A stretch of 8,228 bases of DNA from positions 1 to 8,228 of IMG/VR virus record IMGVR_UViG_2675903352_000011. The stretch is one strand, 5' to 3'. Below the pieces are notes generated by a model. That model made no database searches and had not been told where the DNA came from. It saw only the letters and a list, made by a program, of their open reading frames with translations. A program made the position numbers and the translations under genes. Below, piece by piece: positions 1-8,053 of the stretch. Position 1 is the stretch's first letter. Every line of letters begins with the position of its first letter. Source of the stretch: a virus (taxonomy: Duplodnaviria; Heunggongvirae; Uroviricota; Caudoviricetes).

Positions 1-154
1 TAACGAGGAAAGACCTCTGCGAGGTACGAATCCGAACCGGCCAGACGGAGGTCGCTGTCTTCACAGCTTACGAACCTGAGGAGTAAGAGACCCGGCGAGG
101 GAGAAATCCCTCGCCACCTCTGATGTGGCAGGCATCCTCAACGCACCCGCACTT

Positions 155-181
155 AACCCGCTTCGGCGGGTTTTTGTTTTT
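155..181 (+). terminator. Rho-independent terminator (GC stem, UUCG tetraloop, T-tract)
   Basis: Seen in sequence: aacccgc / ttcg / gcgggtt stem-loop at 155-172 followed by tttttgtttttatttt. Upstream 100-122 holds a second hairpin (gcgaggga gaaa tccctcgc). No ORF is listed in 1-300. Confidence 0.6.
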
Positions 182-2471: not shown

Positions 2472-2996
2472 TTATTGTTTAACCCATAATAGTTCATTGA
2501 CATTGAATCCCAACTTTTGAGCGGTACGCACATAGTCTGCTTTTACATTATCTGGAATAGTTTGGGTCCTTGCCAGAATCCATAGGTATTCTCTGTTCGG
2601 ACCACTGACAAGAGCATACTTATACTCATCATCCAGTTTGATTACATTATAGCCACCATAGAAGGGGCCAAAAAACGAAACTTTCAACGCTGCAGTTTTA
2701 GTATCTCCAGTAAAGTATGCTTTACCTTCGCTCTCGCTCCATTTGTTTTTCGTTGGATCGTATCCACGGTTAAGTACGCGAATCCCTCCGTCGTTCCGTT
2801 TTTCATAAGTAGCGCTGACCTGTTCCAGACCACGTTCGAACCAGTTCTCGAGGCGAGCTATTTCATACCATTTTCCGAGGTAGCGGTTGGCGTCAAAATT
2901 TGTAATCGGCTGCACACCTTTAGGTGGTGTCGGGGCCTTACATGCTATAAGAGTGAAAGAGAGTGCAATGCCAGTCAACACAGGCCATAACTTCAT
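2472..2996 (-). CDS. blc: Bacterial lipocalin (Blc-like) outer-membrane lipoprotein
   Basis: 174-aa translation with signal peptide and lipobox (MKLWPVLTGIALSFTLIAC, Cys followed by K at +2, not an Asp Lol-avoidance signal). Strong resemblance to E. coli Blc motifs: NFDANRYLGKWYEIARLENWFERGLEQVSATY, KAYFTGD..AALKVSFFGPFYGGYNVI, YLWILART. AGGA Shine-Dalgarno 6-8 nt upstream of the ATG on the minus strand. Opposite orientation to the late operon. Confidence 0.85.
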   Translation of the reverse strand: MKLWPVLTGIALSFTLIACKAPTPPKGVQPITNFDANRYLGKWYEIARLENWFERGLEQVSATYEKRNDGGIRVLNRGYDPTKNKWSESEGKAYFTGDTKTAALKVSFFGPFYGGYNVIKLDDEYKYALVSGPNREYLWILARTQTIPDNVKADYVRTAQKLGFNVNELLWVKQ

Positions 2997-3188
2997 AATA
3001 AATCCTGTACTTTTGATAGTTGAGAGTAAGTATGAAAGATAGATGAGTACGACCGATCACTTAAAGAACTTTCCTACTATATTAGGAATAGTCAATAACA
3101 GAAAAATTGTCAGTGATGAAGCCAGAAAGGCAATTTAGTCCGTGCACTACAAAGTTTATGTGTTAATGAATTAGTCAAGGGGGAGGAA

Positions 3189-4148
3189 ATGATAAAAAAA
3201 CCTGTGATTGGGATCAGCGGTTGTTTGGGCGGTTCTGCTGTTCGTTTTGATGGTGGTCACAAAAGAGATGACTTTTTAATGGACAAATTAGTGGAATGGG
3301 TAACATTCAGACCAGTATGTCCGGAAATGGCTATAGGGCTGCCAGTTCCGCGTCCTGCTCTACGACTTGTGCGCTCGAAGCAAGGAAATATACGGATGTG
3401 TTTCAGCCACGACCAGAATGAGGATGTGACAGAGAGAATGACAGAGTTTAGTCGTTCTTATATGGACAAATTAAAGGATGTATCGGGGTTTGTGGTTTGT
3501 GCTAAATCTCCCAGCTGTGGCATGGAGCGCGTGCGTGTCTATGATGAAAATGGTAATCGAGGTCGTAAAGATGGAGTGGGACTATTTACGAGCACTTTGA
3601 TGGAAAAGTTTTCCTGGCTACCGGTTGAAGAGGATGGGCGATTACATGATCCAGTGCTTCGTGAGAATTTTATTGAAAGAGTTTTTGCTTTGCATGAGCT
3701 CAATCACCTTTACAAGGAGAAATTATCAAGAAGAGAGTTATTAGCTTTTCATAGTCGTTATAAGCTTCAGTTGTTGGCGCATAGCCAGGCAGGCTATAAA
3801 GATATGGGACCATTTGTGGCTGCAATACACGAGTGGGCGGACCTTGAATCATACTTTGAGGTGTATCGTGATAATCTGATGGCGATTCTCAGAAAACCAG
3901 CATCACGTAAAAATCACACGAATGTGCTGATGCATATACAGGGGTATTTTAGTAATTACTTAAGTACACGCCAGCGTAAAGAGTTGAGCGAGGTTATACT
4001 TAACTATCGCTTTGGCACATTGCCTCTTCTTGCGCCGTTGACTCTGCTGAAGCATTATCTGGGTGAGTATCCTAATGATTACTTGCTTACACAGAATTAC
4101 TTCGATCCCTATCCGGAAGAACTGGCTCTAAGACTGATGGTGAATTAA
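3189..4148 (+). CDS. DUF523-DUF1722 fusion protein (TudS-like, putative [4Fe-4S] thiouracil/thiouridine desulfidase family)
   Basis: 319 aa. N-terminal PVIGISGCLGGSAVRFDGGHKRD is a DUF523-type motif. Cysteines at about positions 12, 44 and 104 fit the three-Cys ligand pattern I recall for TudS-type DUF523 proteins. The C-terminal half (AFHSRYKLQLLAHSQAGYKDMG...) resembles DUF1722. Strong RBS gggggagg about 5 nt upstream of the ATG. Confidence 0.7.
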   Translation: MIKKPVIGISGCLGGSAVRFDGGHKRDDFLMDKLVEWVTFRPVCPEMAIGLPVPRPALRLVRSKQGNIRMCFSHDQNEDVTERMTEFSRSYMDKLKDVSGFVVCAKSPSCGMERVRVYDENGNRGRKDGVGLFTSTLMEKFSWLPVEEDGRLHDPVLRENFIERVFALHELNHLYKEKLSRRELLAFHSRYKLQLLAHSQAGYKDMGPFVAAIHEWADLESYFEVYRDNLMAILRKPASRKNHTNVLMHIQGYFSNYLSTRQRKELSEVILNYRFGTLPLLAPLTLLKHYLGEYPNDYLLTQNYFDPYPEELALRLMVN

Positions 4149-4545
4149 CTGTATGCGATATCATCTGAAAGTGATGAGTTCCTGTATGCAGGATATTTAC
4201 AATCGTAAAAACTACGCTATGATGCTCATAGTGTCAGTTTTTATAAAAATCCTGTTCACGCTAAAGAAAACATTGAGATGCAATTTAATGTTGGTAAACA
4301 TACCAGCCCCAAAAGATTTTATTCAATCTGTTTTTATATGAAGATATTTCAAGTGAATATTAAGAGCATATAATATTATTATTGCACGCAGCTATTATAA
4401 TATAACAGATTAGTTTAATGATTTGTTTTTTGTGAGTTAAACACATGGTTTTATAGTTGTGATGCAATGAGATTTTCCTTATTGTTGAACTGGCGAATAT
4501 TGATTTTCCACCTATACTTACCTGGTGTAACCCCAATGATATCAG

Positions 4546-5268
4546 GTGGATAATATGCCATACATATGTTCTATCATTTTGGTGTTGAACTCGTTTGGTG
4601 TCCGAATTGGTAAAGAAGATATTTTGTTTAAAAAAGGAAATGCTGTTCTCATTGAATACAATTTAAAAGATCTTTTTTCGTCAAATACAGATCATCTAAT
4701 GATCGTAGATGTTGAGGAGAAAACAGTTAATGATTTCTTTAAAAACTACACACTCTCACCTTTTTCTGTAAGAAGGTTTTATCCGTCATACTTTATAGTA
4801 GAATGTGAAGATTTTTCATTGTTAAAGAACTTGGTTGCATGCTTGAATTGTGATAGCAAAACCGTGGATGTAGTTAGAAATCAAATATCACTTGCATGTC
4901 TTGCTGTCTTATCTTCAGAGAAAATAGTGCAAAGTTTTTTGTTCGGAAGTCTTAATAGCTTAGGTTGTAAAGTTAAGGCTATTATTCACTCGGATATCTC
5001 AGCGTCATGGAGACTTTGTGATATATCTTCAAGATTATATATGAGCGAGAGTTTGTTAAAAAGAAAATTAAAAGATGAAGGATTATCGTTTAGTAAATTA
5101 ATTCTTGAAGAACGAATGATGATGGCGCAAAGATTATTGATCTACAGTAACCATACTGTCGGCAAGGTGGCGGGAATATGCGGGTATGACAATGCATCAT
5201 ATTTTGTAAGTGTTTTTAGAGGATATTTTGGTGTGCCTCCGCACCAATATTTATCAAGATTTTCTTAG
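4546..5268 (+). CDS. AraC-family transcriptional regulator (AppY / YdeO / PatE-like prophage regulator)
   Basis: 240 aa. C-terminal AraC-type HTH signature (SESLLKRKLKDEGLSFSKLILEERMMMAQRLLIYSNHTVGKVAGICGYDNASYFVSVFRGYFGVPPHQY). N-terminus MDNMPYICSIILVLNSFG... resembles the AppY-like subgroup. Very AT-rich gene and upstream region. Start could be M1 or M4. Confidence 0.8.
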   Translation: MDNMPYICSIILVLNSFGVRIGKEDILFKKGNAVLIEYNLKDLFSSNTDHLMIVDVEEKTVNDFFKNYTLSPFSVRRFYPSYFIVECEDFSLLKNLVACLNCDSKTVDVVRNQISLACLAVLSSEKIVQSFLFGSLNSLGCKVKAIIHSDISASWRLCDISSRLYMSESLLKRKLKDEGLSFSKLILEERMMMAQRLLIYSNHTVGKVAGICGYDNASYFVSVFRGYFGVPPHQYLSRFS

Positions 5269-5336: not shown

Positions 5337-5369
5337 ACGCCAGAATAATTGCTGGCGTTTTTCTTTTTG
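5337..5369 (+). terminator. Rho-independent terminator downstream of the AraC-family gene
   Basis: Seen in sequence: acgccag / aataattg / ctggcg hairpin followed by tttttctttttg. Confidence 0.6.
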
Positions 5370-5458: not shown

Positions 5459-5674
5459 ATGAAATCCATGGATAAGTTAACAACGGGCATCGCCTACAGC
5501 ACCTCTGCAGGCAGTGCTGGCTACTGGTTTTTACAGTTGCTCGATAAAGTCACGCCCTCACAGTGGGCGGCAATAGGTGTATTGGGTAGTCTGGTATTTG
5601 GCATGCTGACGTATCTGACAAACCTTTATTTCAAGATTAAAGAAGACAGGCGTAAGGTTGCGAGAAGAGAGTAA
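5459..5674 (+). CDS. essD: Class II holin / pinholin (S21, EssD-like) with dual-start motif
   Basis: 71 aa: [71 protein letters not shown]. Near-identical to my memory of phage 21 S / DLP12 EssD. Met-Lys-Ser-Met dual start is typical of the antiholin/holin pair. Two TM segments and a charged C-terminal tail. ggaggtgagg Shine-Dalgarno directly upstream. The ORF-track extension to 5375 is rejected. Confidence 0.9.
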
Positions 5675-5678
5675 TCCA

Positions 5679-6410
5679 ATGACTCAAGACTATGAACTGG
5701 TTGTGAAAGGAGTTCGCAATTTTGAGAATAAAGTGGCGGTAACTGTAGCCTTACGGGACAAAAAACACTTTGACGGTGAAATTTTTGACCTGGACATCTC
5801 GCTGGACCGTGTTGAAGGTGCCGCGCTGGAGTTTTATGAGGCAGCAGCCAGAATGAGCGTCAGGCAGGTCCTCCTGGGAGTGGCAGAAAAATTGTCAGAA
5901 AAAGTTGAGTCTTATCTGCAGCATCAGTACTCCATTGAGATTGAAAATTCTGCCAATAAACACGATCGTCCTCATCTTGCGGGTTTTGATAGTGCAGTTA
6001 AAGCCAACACCAGGCGCGCAGGGCAGGAAAAAAACGTCGGGGATGACATAAGTCGTGCGGTGGTTACTGTAGAGTTTCCAGGGCATATGGCATCAAGAGA
6101 GAAAGTCGGGAAAGGTGGTGCTCCTGTGCTGACGAAAAGAATCGGCAGCAAGGTCAGTGTCTGGCTTGATAATGAAGAAATGTTGTCGGTTATGTACAAG
6201 GAAGACTACGACCCGAAAACAACGTTCAGCGACTATGAAGCGAGAGCAAAAAAGTATGCCTTGTTGATAGTTGCCGCGATGCGAGCCGTAAATGAGCGAC
6301 AACGCCACCACGAAAATGGGGTGGCGTTTGTTGCTAAAGCTGTTCAGCAAACTATTGATGGTATGACGACGAAGTTTCTTCAGGAATTAAAATTGTCTCA
6401 GCAAGAGTAA
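5679..6410 (+). CDS. Unknown-function protein (243 aa) inserted between holin and endolysin
   Basis: ATG at 5679, 4 nt after the holin stop, suggesting co-transcription or translational coupling with the late lysis operon. The ORF-track start at 5658 is a TTG inside the holin gene. No family recognised; no obvious TM segments; no nuclease, NTPase or HTH motif I can identify by eye. Confidence 0.6.
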   Translation: MTQDYELVVKGVRNFENKVAVTVALRDKKHFDGEIFDLDISLDRVEGAALEFYEAAARMSVRQVLLGVAEKLSEKVESYLQHQYSIEIENSANKHDRPHLAGFDSAVKANTRRAGQEKNVGDDISRAVVTVEFPGHMASREKVGKGGAPVLTKRIGSKVSVWLDNEEMLSVMYKEDYDPKTTFSDYEARAKKYALLIVAAMRAVNERQRHHENGVAFVAKAVQQTIDGMTTKFLQELKLSQQE

Positions 6411-6633
6411 CGCATGATTCGGCAATCAATTTGTTCATTTCGTCTAAAACTTCCTGCGGGGTTTCCAGGGATTCGGGTAATTTTATTGATGAAAAAGTGT
6501 TAGCTGATTTAGTAAGCAAATCTTTAATAATTGCTTTTTTCTCATCTGGTAAAGCGTTAACTAGGAGTATGACAACCTGTCTGATGGCCAGAATATCAGC
6601 AAAAGCTTTTTTAGATAAATAAGTATCGCTCAT
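6352..6633 (-). CDS. Unknown-function small protein (93 aa), convergent to and 3'-overlapping the 243-aa gene
   Basis: ATG (minus) at 6633 with AAGGA Shine-Dalgarno about 4-5 nt upstream. Translation MSDTYLSKKAFADILAIRQVVILLVNALPDEKKAIIKDLL... is helical and charged, not antisense junk. Very AT-rich. Last ~19 codons overlap the 3' end of the + strand 243-aa gene (6352-6410). Confidence 0.5.
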   Translation of the reverse strand: MSDTYLSKKAFADILAIRQVVILLVNALPDEKKAIIKDLLTKSANTFSSIKLPESLETPQEVLDEMNKLIAESCVTLAETILIPEETSSSYHQ

Positions 6634-6759
6634 ATGTTGTCCTTACTGTTTGTTCTGTGATCTTCACATTGTCAGTATTACCCCTGCGAGGAACTACCTG
6701 CCGGGCTGAGTACTAAACATATCCAGGGTTCAGGAACCGATAAATCCTGATAAATATCC

Positions 6760-7293
6760 ATGAACGTAAAAATCAAATACGGCCTGTCAGCTGCCGTTCT
6801 GGCGCTGATTGCTGCAGGCGCGTCTGCTCCTCAAATACTTGACCAGTTTCTGGATGAAAAAGAAGGTAACCACACAACGGCATACCGTGATGGTTCTGGC
6901 ATATGGACCATCTGTCGTGGTGCCACAATGGTGGATGGTAAGCCCGTCATACCGGGAATGAAGCTGTCGAAGGAAAAATGCGACCAGGTTAACGCTATTG
7001 AACGTGATAAGGCGCTGGCATGGGTGGATCGCAATATAAAAGTACCACTGACCGAACCACAAAAAGCAGGTATTGCGTCATTTTGTCCCTATAACATTGG
7101 CCCCGGTAAGTGTTTCCCGTCGACGTTTTATAAGCGGCTGAATGCCGGTGATCGTAAAGGCGCATGCGAGGCGATTCGCTGGTGGATTAAGGACGGTGGC
7201 CGTGATTGCCGCATTCGTTCAAATAACTGTTACGGTCAGGTTATTCGTCGTGACCAGGAGAGTGCGCTGGTGTGCTGGGGGATCGACAGATAA
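6760..7293 (+). CDS. rrrD: SAR endolysin (T4-lysozyme-like muramidase, RrrD / R21-like)
   Basis: 177 aa. N-terminal signal-anchor-release domain YGLSAAVLALIAAGASAP (Gly/Ala-rich, weakly hydrophobic). Catalytic E...D...T spacing matches T4 lysozyme (E-9-D-6-T in EGNHTTAYRDGSGIWT). Closely matches my memory of DLP12 RrrD. Pairing with a pinholin is the established S21/R21 arrangement. Confidence 0.9.
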   Translation: MNVKIKYGLSAAVLALIAAGASAPQILDQFLDEKEGNHTTAYRDGSGIWTICRGATMVDGKPVIPGMKLSKEKCDQVNAIERDKALAWVDRNIKVPLTEPQKAGIASFCPYNIGPGKCFPSTFYKRLNAGDRKGACEAIRWWIKDGGRDCRIRSNNCYGQVIRRDQESALVCWGIDR

Positions 7294-7588: not shown

Positions 7589-8053
7589 ATGAACCGGATT
7601 CTGTATGGCGTGATTATTGTCCTGCTGATGGTCTGTAGTGCTCTGTGGCTGGCAACAGATCATTACCGCGATAACGCCATTACCTACAAAACACAACGCG
7701 ATGACAATGCCAGAGAGCTGAAACTGGCAGAGGCGATCATTACTGATATGCAGGTGCGCCAGCGTGACGTTGCTGCACTCGATGCAAAATATTCAAAGGA
7801 ATTAGCTGATGCGAAAGCTGAAAATGATGCTCTGCGTGATGATATTGCCGCTGGTCGTCGTCGGTTGCGCATCAGAGCAGTCTGTCCAGCCGTGCGTGAA
7901 GCCACCGCCTCCTCCGGCGTGGATGATGCAACCAGCCCCCGACTGGCAGACACCGCTGAACGGGATTATTTCACCCTCAGAGACCGATTGATGACGATGC
8001 AGAAGCAACTGGAAGGGGCACAGCTATACATTCGTGAGCAATGCCTCAGATAA
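7589..8053 (+). CDS. rzpD: Spanin inner-membrane subunit Rz (i-spanin, RzpD-like)
   Basis: 154 aa from ATG 7589: MNRILYGVIIVLLMVCSALWLATDHYRDNAITYKTQRDDNARELKLAEAIITDMQ... N-terminal TM anchor plus coiled-coil periplasmic domain, strong resemblance to lambda/DLP12 Rz. The ORF-track start at 7538 is rejected because it lacks an RBS and overlaps the upstream peptide ORF. Confidence 0.85.
   Translation: MNRILYGVIIVLLMVCSALWLATDHYRDNAITYKTQRDDNARELKLAEAIITDMQVRQRDVAALDAKYSKELADAKAENDALRDDIAAGRRRLRIRAVCPAVREATASSGVDDATSPRLADTAERDYFTLRDRLMTMQKQLEGAQLYIREQCLR
7809..7991 (+). CDS. rzoD: Spanin outer-membrane lipoprotein subunit Rz1 (o-spanin, RzoD-like), embedded in the +1 frame of Rz
   Basis: 60 aa: MRKLKMMLCVMILPLVVVGCASEQSVQPCVKPPPPPAWMMQPAPDWQTPLNGIISPSETD. 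Lipobox LVVVGC and a proline-rich segment. Lies entirely within the Rz coding region in a different frame, the classic Rz/Rz1 arrangement. Confidence 0.85.
   Translation: MRKLKMMLCVMILPLVVVGCASEQSVQPCVKPPPPPAWMMQPAPDWQTPLNGIISPSETD

Follow-up and report, generated by a model that had tools for sequence, protein, structure and literature searches.

The late genes of lambdoid phages are normally read from a single Q-dependent promoter. In phage lambda, the bor gene is expressed in lysogens and lies backwards in the late region, and its coding sequence does not overlap those of its neighbours. Cis-antisense pairs that overlap at their 3' ends include lambda oop RNA with cII and the Bacillus prophage pairs txpA/RatA and bsrG/SR4, where a small non-coding RNA opposes the mRNA of a regulator or of a small hydrophobic toxin. 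Bidirectional intrinsic terminators are hairpins situated between convergent genes. Long convergent overlaps of coding sequences are usually annotation errors or are limited to very close relatives. A survey with a threshold of 60 bp for long convergent overlaps recognised real cases by their orthologue-like gene lengths, and these were mostly conserved between very close species only (Palleja et al. 2008, PMC2478687).

Here, we analysed a window of 8,228 nucleotides (the whole stretch of virus DNA examined), which corresponds to the late region of an Escherichia lambdoid prophage and carries a small minus-strand gene running into the 3' end of a late gene. By analogy, the locus would work like a backward moron of the lambda bor type combined with the conserved convergent overlaps of the survey. 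As with bor, a small accessory gene lies opposite late transcription and adjoins the lysis genes, is present or absent among related prophages, and appears to have a hairpin terminator of its own; in one of its three clades (clade C), the gene lies after Rz, which is the slot of bor. Unlike bor, it has its 3' coding end and likely terminator inside the frame of a neighbour, and its product is not a lipoprotein. The overlap resembles the surveyed cases (PMC2478687) in being close to the 60-bp threshold and in that both genes have the lengths and the 3' ends of their orthologues, but it differs from them in spanning clades at 38–53% protein identity and two genomic slots. With oop RNA and the type I pairs, the locus shares convergent prophage transcripts whose 3' ends would be complementary over roughly 55–120 nt, the kind of mechanism that the first-pass annotation envisaged, whereas both partners here encode soluble proteins. 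The antisense partner contains a conserved ORF of 86–93 aa with a Shine-Dalgarno sequence and has no Rfam match, while the partner gene product, at 67–243 aa, is hydrophilic and rich in charged residues; the locus thus falls outside the definition of type I toxin-antitoxin and oop systems. Finally, as in bidirectional terminators, a GC-rich hairpin folds equally well on both strands and is flanked by A and U runs in clade B, but it lies inside coding sequence, approximately 80–110 nt before the partner stop codon, and its U tracts are poor in the window.

A convergent gene pair between holin and endolysin

The genes of the window are arranged, from 5' to 3', as a DUF968 gene, the antiterminator Q (1925–2317), three cargo genes, the holin, a DUF1327/YdfR-family gene (hereafter the partner), the small gene, the endolysin, and Rz/Rz1. 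The holin (5459–5674, + strand; Pfam Phage_holin_2_1, E = 9e-34) is of the phage 21 type, lies directly upstream of the partner gene, and has the dual start MKSM of phage 21-type holin/antiholin genes, typical of lysis cassettes. The endolysin gene (6760–7293, + strand; Pfam Phage_lysozyme, E = 1e-24) is followed by Rz (7589–8053), in which Rz1 is embedded as a lipoprotein-like 60-aa ORF (7809–7991). The cargo between Q and the holin (2472–5268) consists of a Blc-like lipocalin on the minus strand, a 2-thiouracil desulfurase/DUF1722 protein, and an AraC-type regulator. This is the slot where Stx phages hold the stx genes, and homologues of the desulfurase/DUF1722 and AraC-type genes are annotated at the equivalent place in E. 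coli LR-45. On the + strand, two hairpins with T runs, at 2416–2439 and 5337–5358, look like terminators. The former, approximately 100 nt after Q, resembles the terminator of the short late leader transcript and overlaps a weak Rfam hit (RF02278) below threshold; the latter, just before the holin, would keep transcription of the cargo from reaching the lysis genes. At 95–176 (+ strand), the isrK family of Hfq-binding RNAs was matched weakly (25.7 bits, E = 0.023; gathering score, 50), probably by chance.

The small gene occupies 6352–6633 on the minus strand (ATG at 6633–6631, TAG at 6354–6352), preceded at 6 nt by the Shine-Dalgarno sequence AAGGA (6640–6644), and encodes an acidic protein of 93 aa with the C-terminal tail ...IPEETSSSYHQ. 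The protein corresponds over its full length to phrog_2572 (residues 1–93 against profile positions 1–86 of 86, E = 4.3e-39), and no Pfam family matched it above the cut-off. The DUF1823 (E = 0.023) and ABATE (E = 0.07) models, retrieved at a permissive Pfam threshold (E ≤ 10), scored far under their cut-offs and were regarded as noise; the label "DUF1823" in the PhiR phage records is thus unsupported. The PADLOC defence models gave no matches at E ≤ 0.1 to the small proteins of all three clades or to the partner, and a literature search with the accessions and family name of the small protein returned nothing. AlphaFold predicted three helices (residues 8–26, 30–49, and 59–82; mean pLDDT 73.5), with values below 50 for residues 86–93, and a fold search of this model against the PDB and a viral library yielded nothing with E < 1.

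An exhaustive profile search of 1.84 billion representatives recovered only three clades of the small protein, with identities of 38–53% among them. Clade A is that of the window, clade B is 38–42% identical, and clade C is 53% identical; clade B is found in E. coli phages such as 2H10 and PhiR5_1. The protein of the window had exact matches in E. albertii and E. coli records, and a scan of a genome collection found a single locus. Between clades, nucleotide differences in the small frame were most frequent at codon position 3, followed by positions 1 and 2, and indels comprised whole codons; within clade B, dN/dS was approximately 0.36. The start codon and ribosome-binding site were also kept, with AAGGA in clade C and GAGGTG at the same place in clade B. 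Opposite the small gene, the + strand contains a 63-aa shadow ORF (6431–6622), which is open in all three clades (65 aa in loci L003 and L004, 115 aa in L087). Third codon positions of the two frames face each other, so that counts of synonymous and nonsynonymous changes cannot separate them. They were separated by between-clade BLOSUM62 sums, which reached 142, 176, and 159 without stop codons in the small frame and 82, 140, and 139 with 1–2 stops in the best shadow frame. Taken together with the profile match and the predicted helices, these comparisons suggest that the small ORF is probably a genuine coding gene.

The partner gene (5679–6410, + strand; ATG at 5679, TAA at 6408–6410) encodes 243 aa, of which residues 1–93 constitute a DUF1327/YdfR domain (PF07041, E = 4e-45; 152 bits against a cut-off of 25). 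This domain is followed by a middle domain and by a C-terminal stretch of approximately 37 codons that is antisense to the small gene and its downstream hairpin. The overlapping tail therefore lies outside the DUF1327 domain, and the AlphaFold model of the partner (pLDDT 43) is too poor for judging that tail. In E. coli JP538 (L001, 3252–3776) and CFT073 (L090, 3036–3371), RefSeq annotates the DUF1327 gene as a pseudogene without its C-terminus. The frame in JP538 is nonetheless intact at 174 aa, and it enters the small gene in just the way seen in the window; the pseudogene call is probably an artefact of annotating with the short K-12 YdfR model, and the annotation of the JP538 partner as a truncated pseudogene is corrected here.

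The two frames overlap tail to tail over 59 nt (6352–6410, both strands), which comprise residues 75–93 of the small protein and residues 225–243, i.e., the last 19 codons, of the partner. The extent and position of the overlap reported by the first-pass annotation were thus reproduced. The frames are in such a phase that first codon positions face each other and each position 2 lies opposite a position 3; a silent change in one gene therefore usually alters the other protein. The length of the overlap alone is no more than chance gives: an antisense-open run of at least 18 codons arose in 39% of trials when the partner codons were shuffled (P = 0.39) and in 15% of trials in the reciprocal test with the small-gene codons (P = 0.15). 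Its persistence was consistent across the loci. Among 89 loci with the small gene, 85 were intact, and all 85 retained the overlap, at 59 nt in clades A and C and at 53 nt in clade B, where the partner stop lies two codons earlier; the partner stops of clades A and C are the same. The stop codon of the small gene occupies the same alignment position in all three clades. In the other four loci, a shared change at the stop extends the small ORF to 137 aa (L062–L066, P0144), reading into a frame that elsewhere forms an ORF of its own; a partner ORF was not detected in two of them, and the convergent ORF of the other two is unrelated. This variant probably reflects a small deletion or rearrangement at the overlap.

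The first-pass annotation had alternatively suggested that the overlapping tail of the small protein may be a fortuitous extension, and had named homologues ending about 15–20 residues earlier as a refuting observation. No such homologues were found, and rare 85-aa alleles on two backgrounds end only 8 residues earlier, at ...ETILIPE. The first 8 small-gene codons of the overlap (residues 75–82) make up the end of predicted helix 3, with L77, E79, and I81 invariant among them, which together with the constant stop position argues against a fortuitous tail for most of its length. The idea holds in part for the last 8–11 residues, which are predicted to be disordered and are absent from the 85-aa alleles; the extreme tail thus seems dispensable. 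In these alleles, the overlap of the ORFs is reduced to 35 nt, and, by codon reading, the stop mutation changes a partner Leu to Ile. Some genomes also carry truncated alleles of 42–61 aa. Within the overlap, position 2 of the small frame, which is position 3 of the partner, changes least (8, 5, and 5 of 19). Coding in the small frame is accordingly supported there, whereas the partner frame is open with poorly conserved residues and a low-confidence model. Extra constraint on the overlap was considered for clade B and set aside: 5 of 53 sites vary there and 28 of 208 elsewhere in the small gene, which are similar raw proportions.

A shared DNA unit ending at a hairpin

The partner gene is modular and varies in its upstream part. 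In clade A, the DUF1327 and middle domains occur together (243 aa), in a deletion form (174 aa), or as the middle domain alone (144 aa), and these forms join at AAMRA(V)N, just before the hairpin and tail. In clade B, the partner is either a DUF1327 fusion of 169–211 aa or an independent gene of 67 aa that directly follows the holin; in clade C, a 73-aa partner gene stands alone after Rz, beside a DUF1441 gene and hence in a different slot. Standalone partner genes overlap or abut the stop codon of the upstream late gene. Common to the partners of all clades are the last ~37 codons only.

Comparison of clades A and C at the DNA level delimited the conserved unit. Upstream of the small gene, a 5' block had an identity of 0.71, and the remainder of the 5' flank one of 0.56. 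The coding sequence of the small gene reached 0.66, the overlap 0.64, and the spacer that codes for the partner only 0.45; the highest value, 0.82, was that of a 28-nt hairpin. Just beyond the hairpin, identity fell to 0.33, so that the conserved unit of 5' flank, small ORF, spacer, and hairpin ends there. The spacer (6329–6351), which runs from the small-gene stop to the hairpin and lies in the 3' untranslated region of the small gene, shows the lowest conservation of the whole unit (45% between clades A and C and 30% between A and B), with one indel of 3 nt.

The hairpin (6301–6328, extendable to 6296–6334) has the form AACGCCACC...GGTGGCGTT with a stem of 8–9 bp. It starts 20–23 nt past the small-gene stop (23 nt in the window), within the coding sequence of the partner, which places the likely terminator of the small gene a further 23–51 nt inside the partner gene. 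Its fold is stable in every clade, whichever strand is read (z = -3.5 to -5.0), and 98.4% of cells pair, compared with at most 70% when the partners are slid. Support from covariation is thin, with one compensatory A-U to G-C change and 61 of 500 shuffles reaching the observed score. The codons of the stem read RR...AA in clades B and C and RHH...GVA in clade A; the structure is thus kept while the encoded residues change. On the small-gene strand of clade B, the hairpin is followed by a U8 tail, which is the canonical form of a terminator, and A and U runs flank it on either side (AAAA-stem-loop-stem-UUUUUUUU). The tail of clade C is U-rich (UUUCUGUUCUG) and that of the window is weak (GUCGCUCAUUU); the flanking runs are accordingly present in part in clade C and poorly in the window. 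The hairpin is likely to be a terminator or a 3' stabiliser of the small-gene transcript, so that the gene, in the manner of a moron, would be followed directly by a terminator of its own: the hairpin is conserved, with a weak tail in the window. It also persists in Stx phages that lack the phrog_2572 gene and carry a different convergent gene, and it could therefore belong to the partner gene or its mRNA.

At the other end of the unit, the conserved 5' block (6716–6757, minus strand), with ATATTTATCAGGATTTATC at 6739–6757, serves at the same time as the leader of the divergent endolysin gene. It contains a weak candidate promoter for the small gene (-35 TTTATC at 6739–6744, a 17-nt spacer, and -10 TATGTT at 6716–6721, minus strand), and a scan for consensus sigma-70 promoters found none for this gene. 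The block was present in 87 of the 89 loci, including those of clade C, where no endolysin gene is adjacent. It also precedes the endolysin gene in 101 phage records, mostly without the small gene, such as H-19B. Its candidacy as a cassette-specific promoter was therefore downgraded; because it occurs without the small gene, the block may be that of the endolysin and cannot be assigned to the small gene alone.

We lean, with modest confidence, towards the small gene being a compact moron-type cassette that is packed into the 3' end of its neighbour. Such a cassette would comprise its own 5' flank and ribosome-binding site, the 93-aa ORF, and the hairpin terminator, set backwards in the late lysis operon. 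Its 3' coding end and terminator, read on the opposite strand, would supply the last ~37 codons and the stop codon of whichever late gene lies upstream. In the lysogen, where the late operon would be silent, the small gene would be transcribed and its transcript would end at the hairpin; upon induction, Q-modified late transcription would pass through the hairpin and the whole small gene, and the small gene would be suppressed. Because the end of the cassette doubles as the tail of the partner, the 59-nt overlap would then be an old, inherited packing feature and not a chance extension. The identities and codon comparisons above suggest that conservation in the overlap and hairpin comes mainly from the small gene and the hairpin, leaving the partner residues free to change. 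As it is kept across diverged clades and in two contexts, the locus provides a clean natural example of two reading frames and an RNA hairpin on one stretch of DNA. If expressed in lysogens, the small gene would represent an uncharacterised accessory gene within the lysis cassette.

Antisense control and protein pairing as alternatives

The first-pass annotation had further proposed that convergent transcription with overlapping 3' ends allows mutual antisense interference. From the arrangement of the two genes, such interference is plausible, but the overlap would not set its extent. The endolysin and Rz genes lie downstream on the + strand, a scan found no + strand terminator between 6410 and 6760, and a single late promoter is assumed; late transcription must therefore cross the entire small gene, and any interference would span approximately 400 nt and not 59.

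A stronger form of the same idea is that the overlap is a dedicated antisense control, in which the 3' ends of the mRNAs pair or the polymerases collide, so that, as the first-pass annotation proposed, the small and late genes are expressed mutually exclusively; cutting of the duplex might in addition uncouple holin from endolysin expression and tune the timing of lysis. The convergent geometry and the hairpin are indeed kept in all three clades, at either of the two slots that the locus occupies in the lysis region. In addition, YdfR reportedly binds RNase E at its catalytic half and co-purifies with RNA (PMC13232886), so that a YdfR-family partner puts an RNA-decay factor where sense and antisense RNAs would meet; this is suggestive, but nothing found here connects it with the overlap. 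The late transcript crosses the whole small gene in any case, however, and the 59 nt add nothing specific to that. Conservation of the overlap is explained by the coding constraint on the small gene together with the hairpin, the length of the overlap varies (35 nt in natural alleles, 53 nt in clade B), and the locus has no match in Rfam. We consider a dedicated device unlikely, and the overlap looks like tight packing of an inserted cassette, not like a new kind of switch.

It is similarly doubtful that the two genes form a functional protein pair, such as a late protein and its inhibitor, with the ~37 C-terminal residues of the partner as a true module. The small gene always occurs with the same partner tail, but two genes that share DNA necessarily co-occur. 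In all clades, the partner frame remains open across the hairpin, spacer, and overlap, and the sole spacer indel is 3 nt long, which gives a hint that the partner tail is perhaps also under selection; likewise, two polymorphisms of clade B in the partner-only spacer are, by codon reading, both synonymous for the partner, and, as described above, the standalone partners run up to or into the stop codon of the late gene before them. The residues themselves give a mixed picture. The partner tails of clades B and C are 43% identical over 35 residues, whereas BLASTP detected no similarity between those of clades A and C, in which the small proteins are 53% identical. The partner-only spacer is moreover the least conserved part of the unit, the partner model is of low confidence, and in Stx phages the partner's coiled-coil part is joined to different C-terminal domains and different convergent genes.

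A bolder version of the cassette would be a mobile two-strand module, whose antisense strand gives late genes a C-terminus and a stop codon, and in which pairing of the transcripts is a selected link between lysogenic and lytic states, for example through cleavage by RNase III or RNase E between holin and endolysin, with DUF1327 acting on the same RNA; we judge this version distinctly unlikely. Also improbable is that the 93-aa ORF or its tail is non-functional, being a gene-caller artefact opposite a real + strand ORF at 6431–6622 or a tolerated read-on: the shadow ORF is open in all three clades and has an equal synonymous-to-nonsynonymous ratio within clade B, and the disordered end, the 85-aa alleles on two backgrounds, and the truncations of 42–61 aa would suit a dispensable tail, but the higher BLOSUM sums without stops, the order of differences among codon positions, the conserved Shine-Dalgarno sequence and start, the identical stop position in three clades, and the invariant residues in the helix at 75–82 all argue against it.

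Presence, deletion, and replacement of the small gene

Of 5426 complete E. coli genomes, 6 carried clade A and 294 carried clade B, CFT073 being one of the latter; the clade B gene is thus present in approximately 5% of complete E. coli genomes. As in morons, the small gene is present or absent between conserved flanks, being absent from H-19B, LR-45, and K-12-type loci and replaced in Stx phages. The absence from H-19B and E. coli LR-45 is due to deletion. In K-12-type loci, YdfR is annotated between essD and rrrQ; the match extends over only 61% of the query, and the annotation shows no small gene. In H-19B (L093, 1505–1902), an unannotated truncated DUF1327 ORF of 115 aa lies between S and R, where the small gene and the partner tail are deleted and the endolysin leader block is retained. 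The Stx2a phage LC567842 (L091, 1798–2834) and the Stx1a phage LC567825 (L092, 1486–2727) carry a partner-like gene in the holin-to-endolysin slot, for which Pfam and PADLOC gave no match to the slot genes. In both phages, this gene, including its coiled-coil part, is joined to a different C-terminal domain of approximately 150 aa. The convergent gene of the Stx2a phage is unrelated, 104 aa long, and does not overlap its neighbour, whereas in the Stx1a phage an unannotated minus-strand ORF of 233 aa overlaps the + strand gene by 252 nt.
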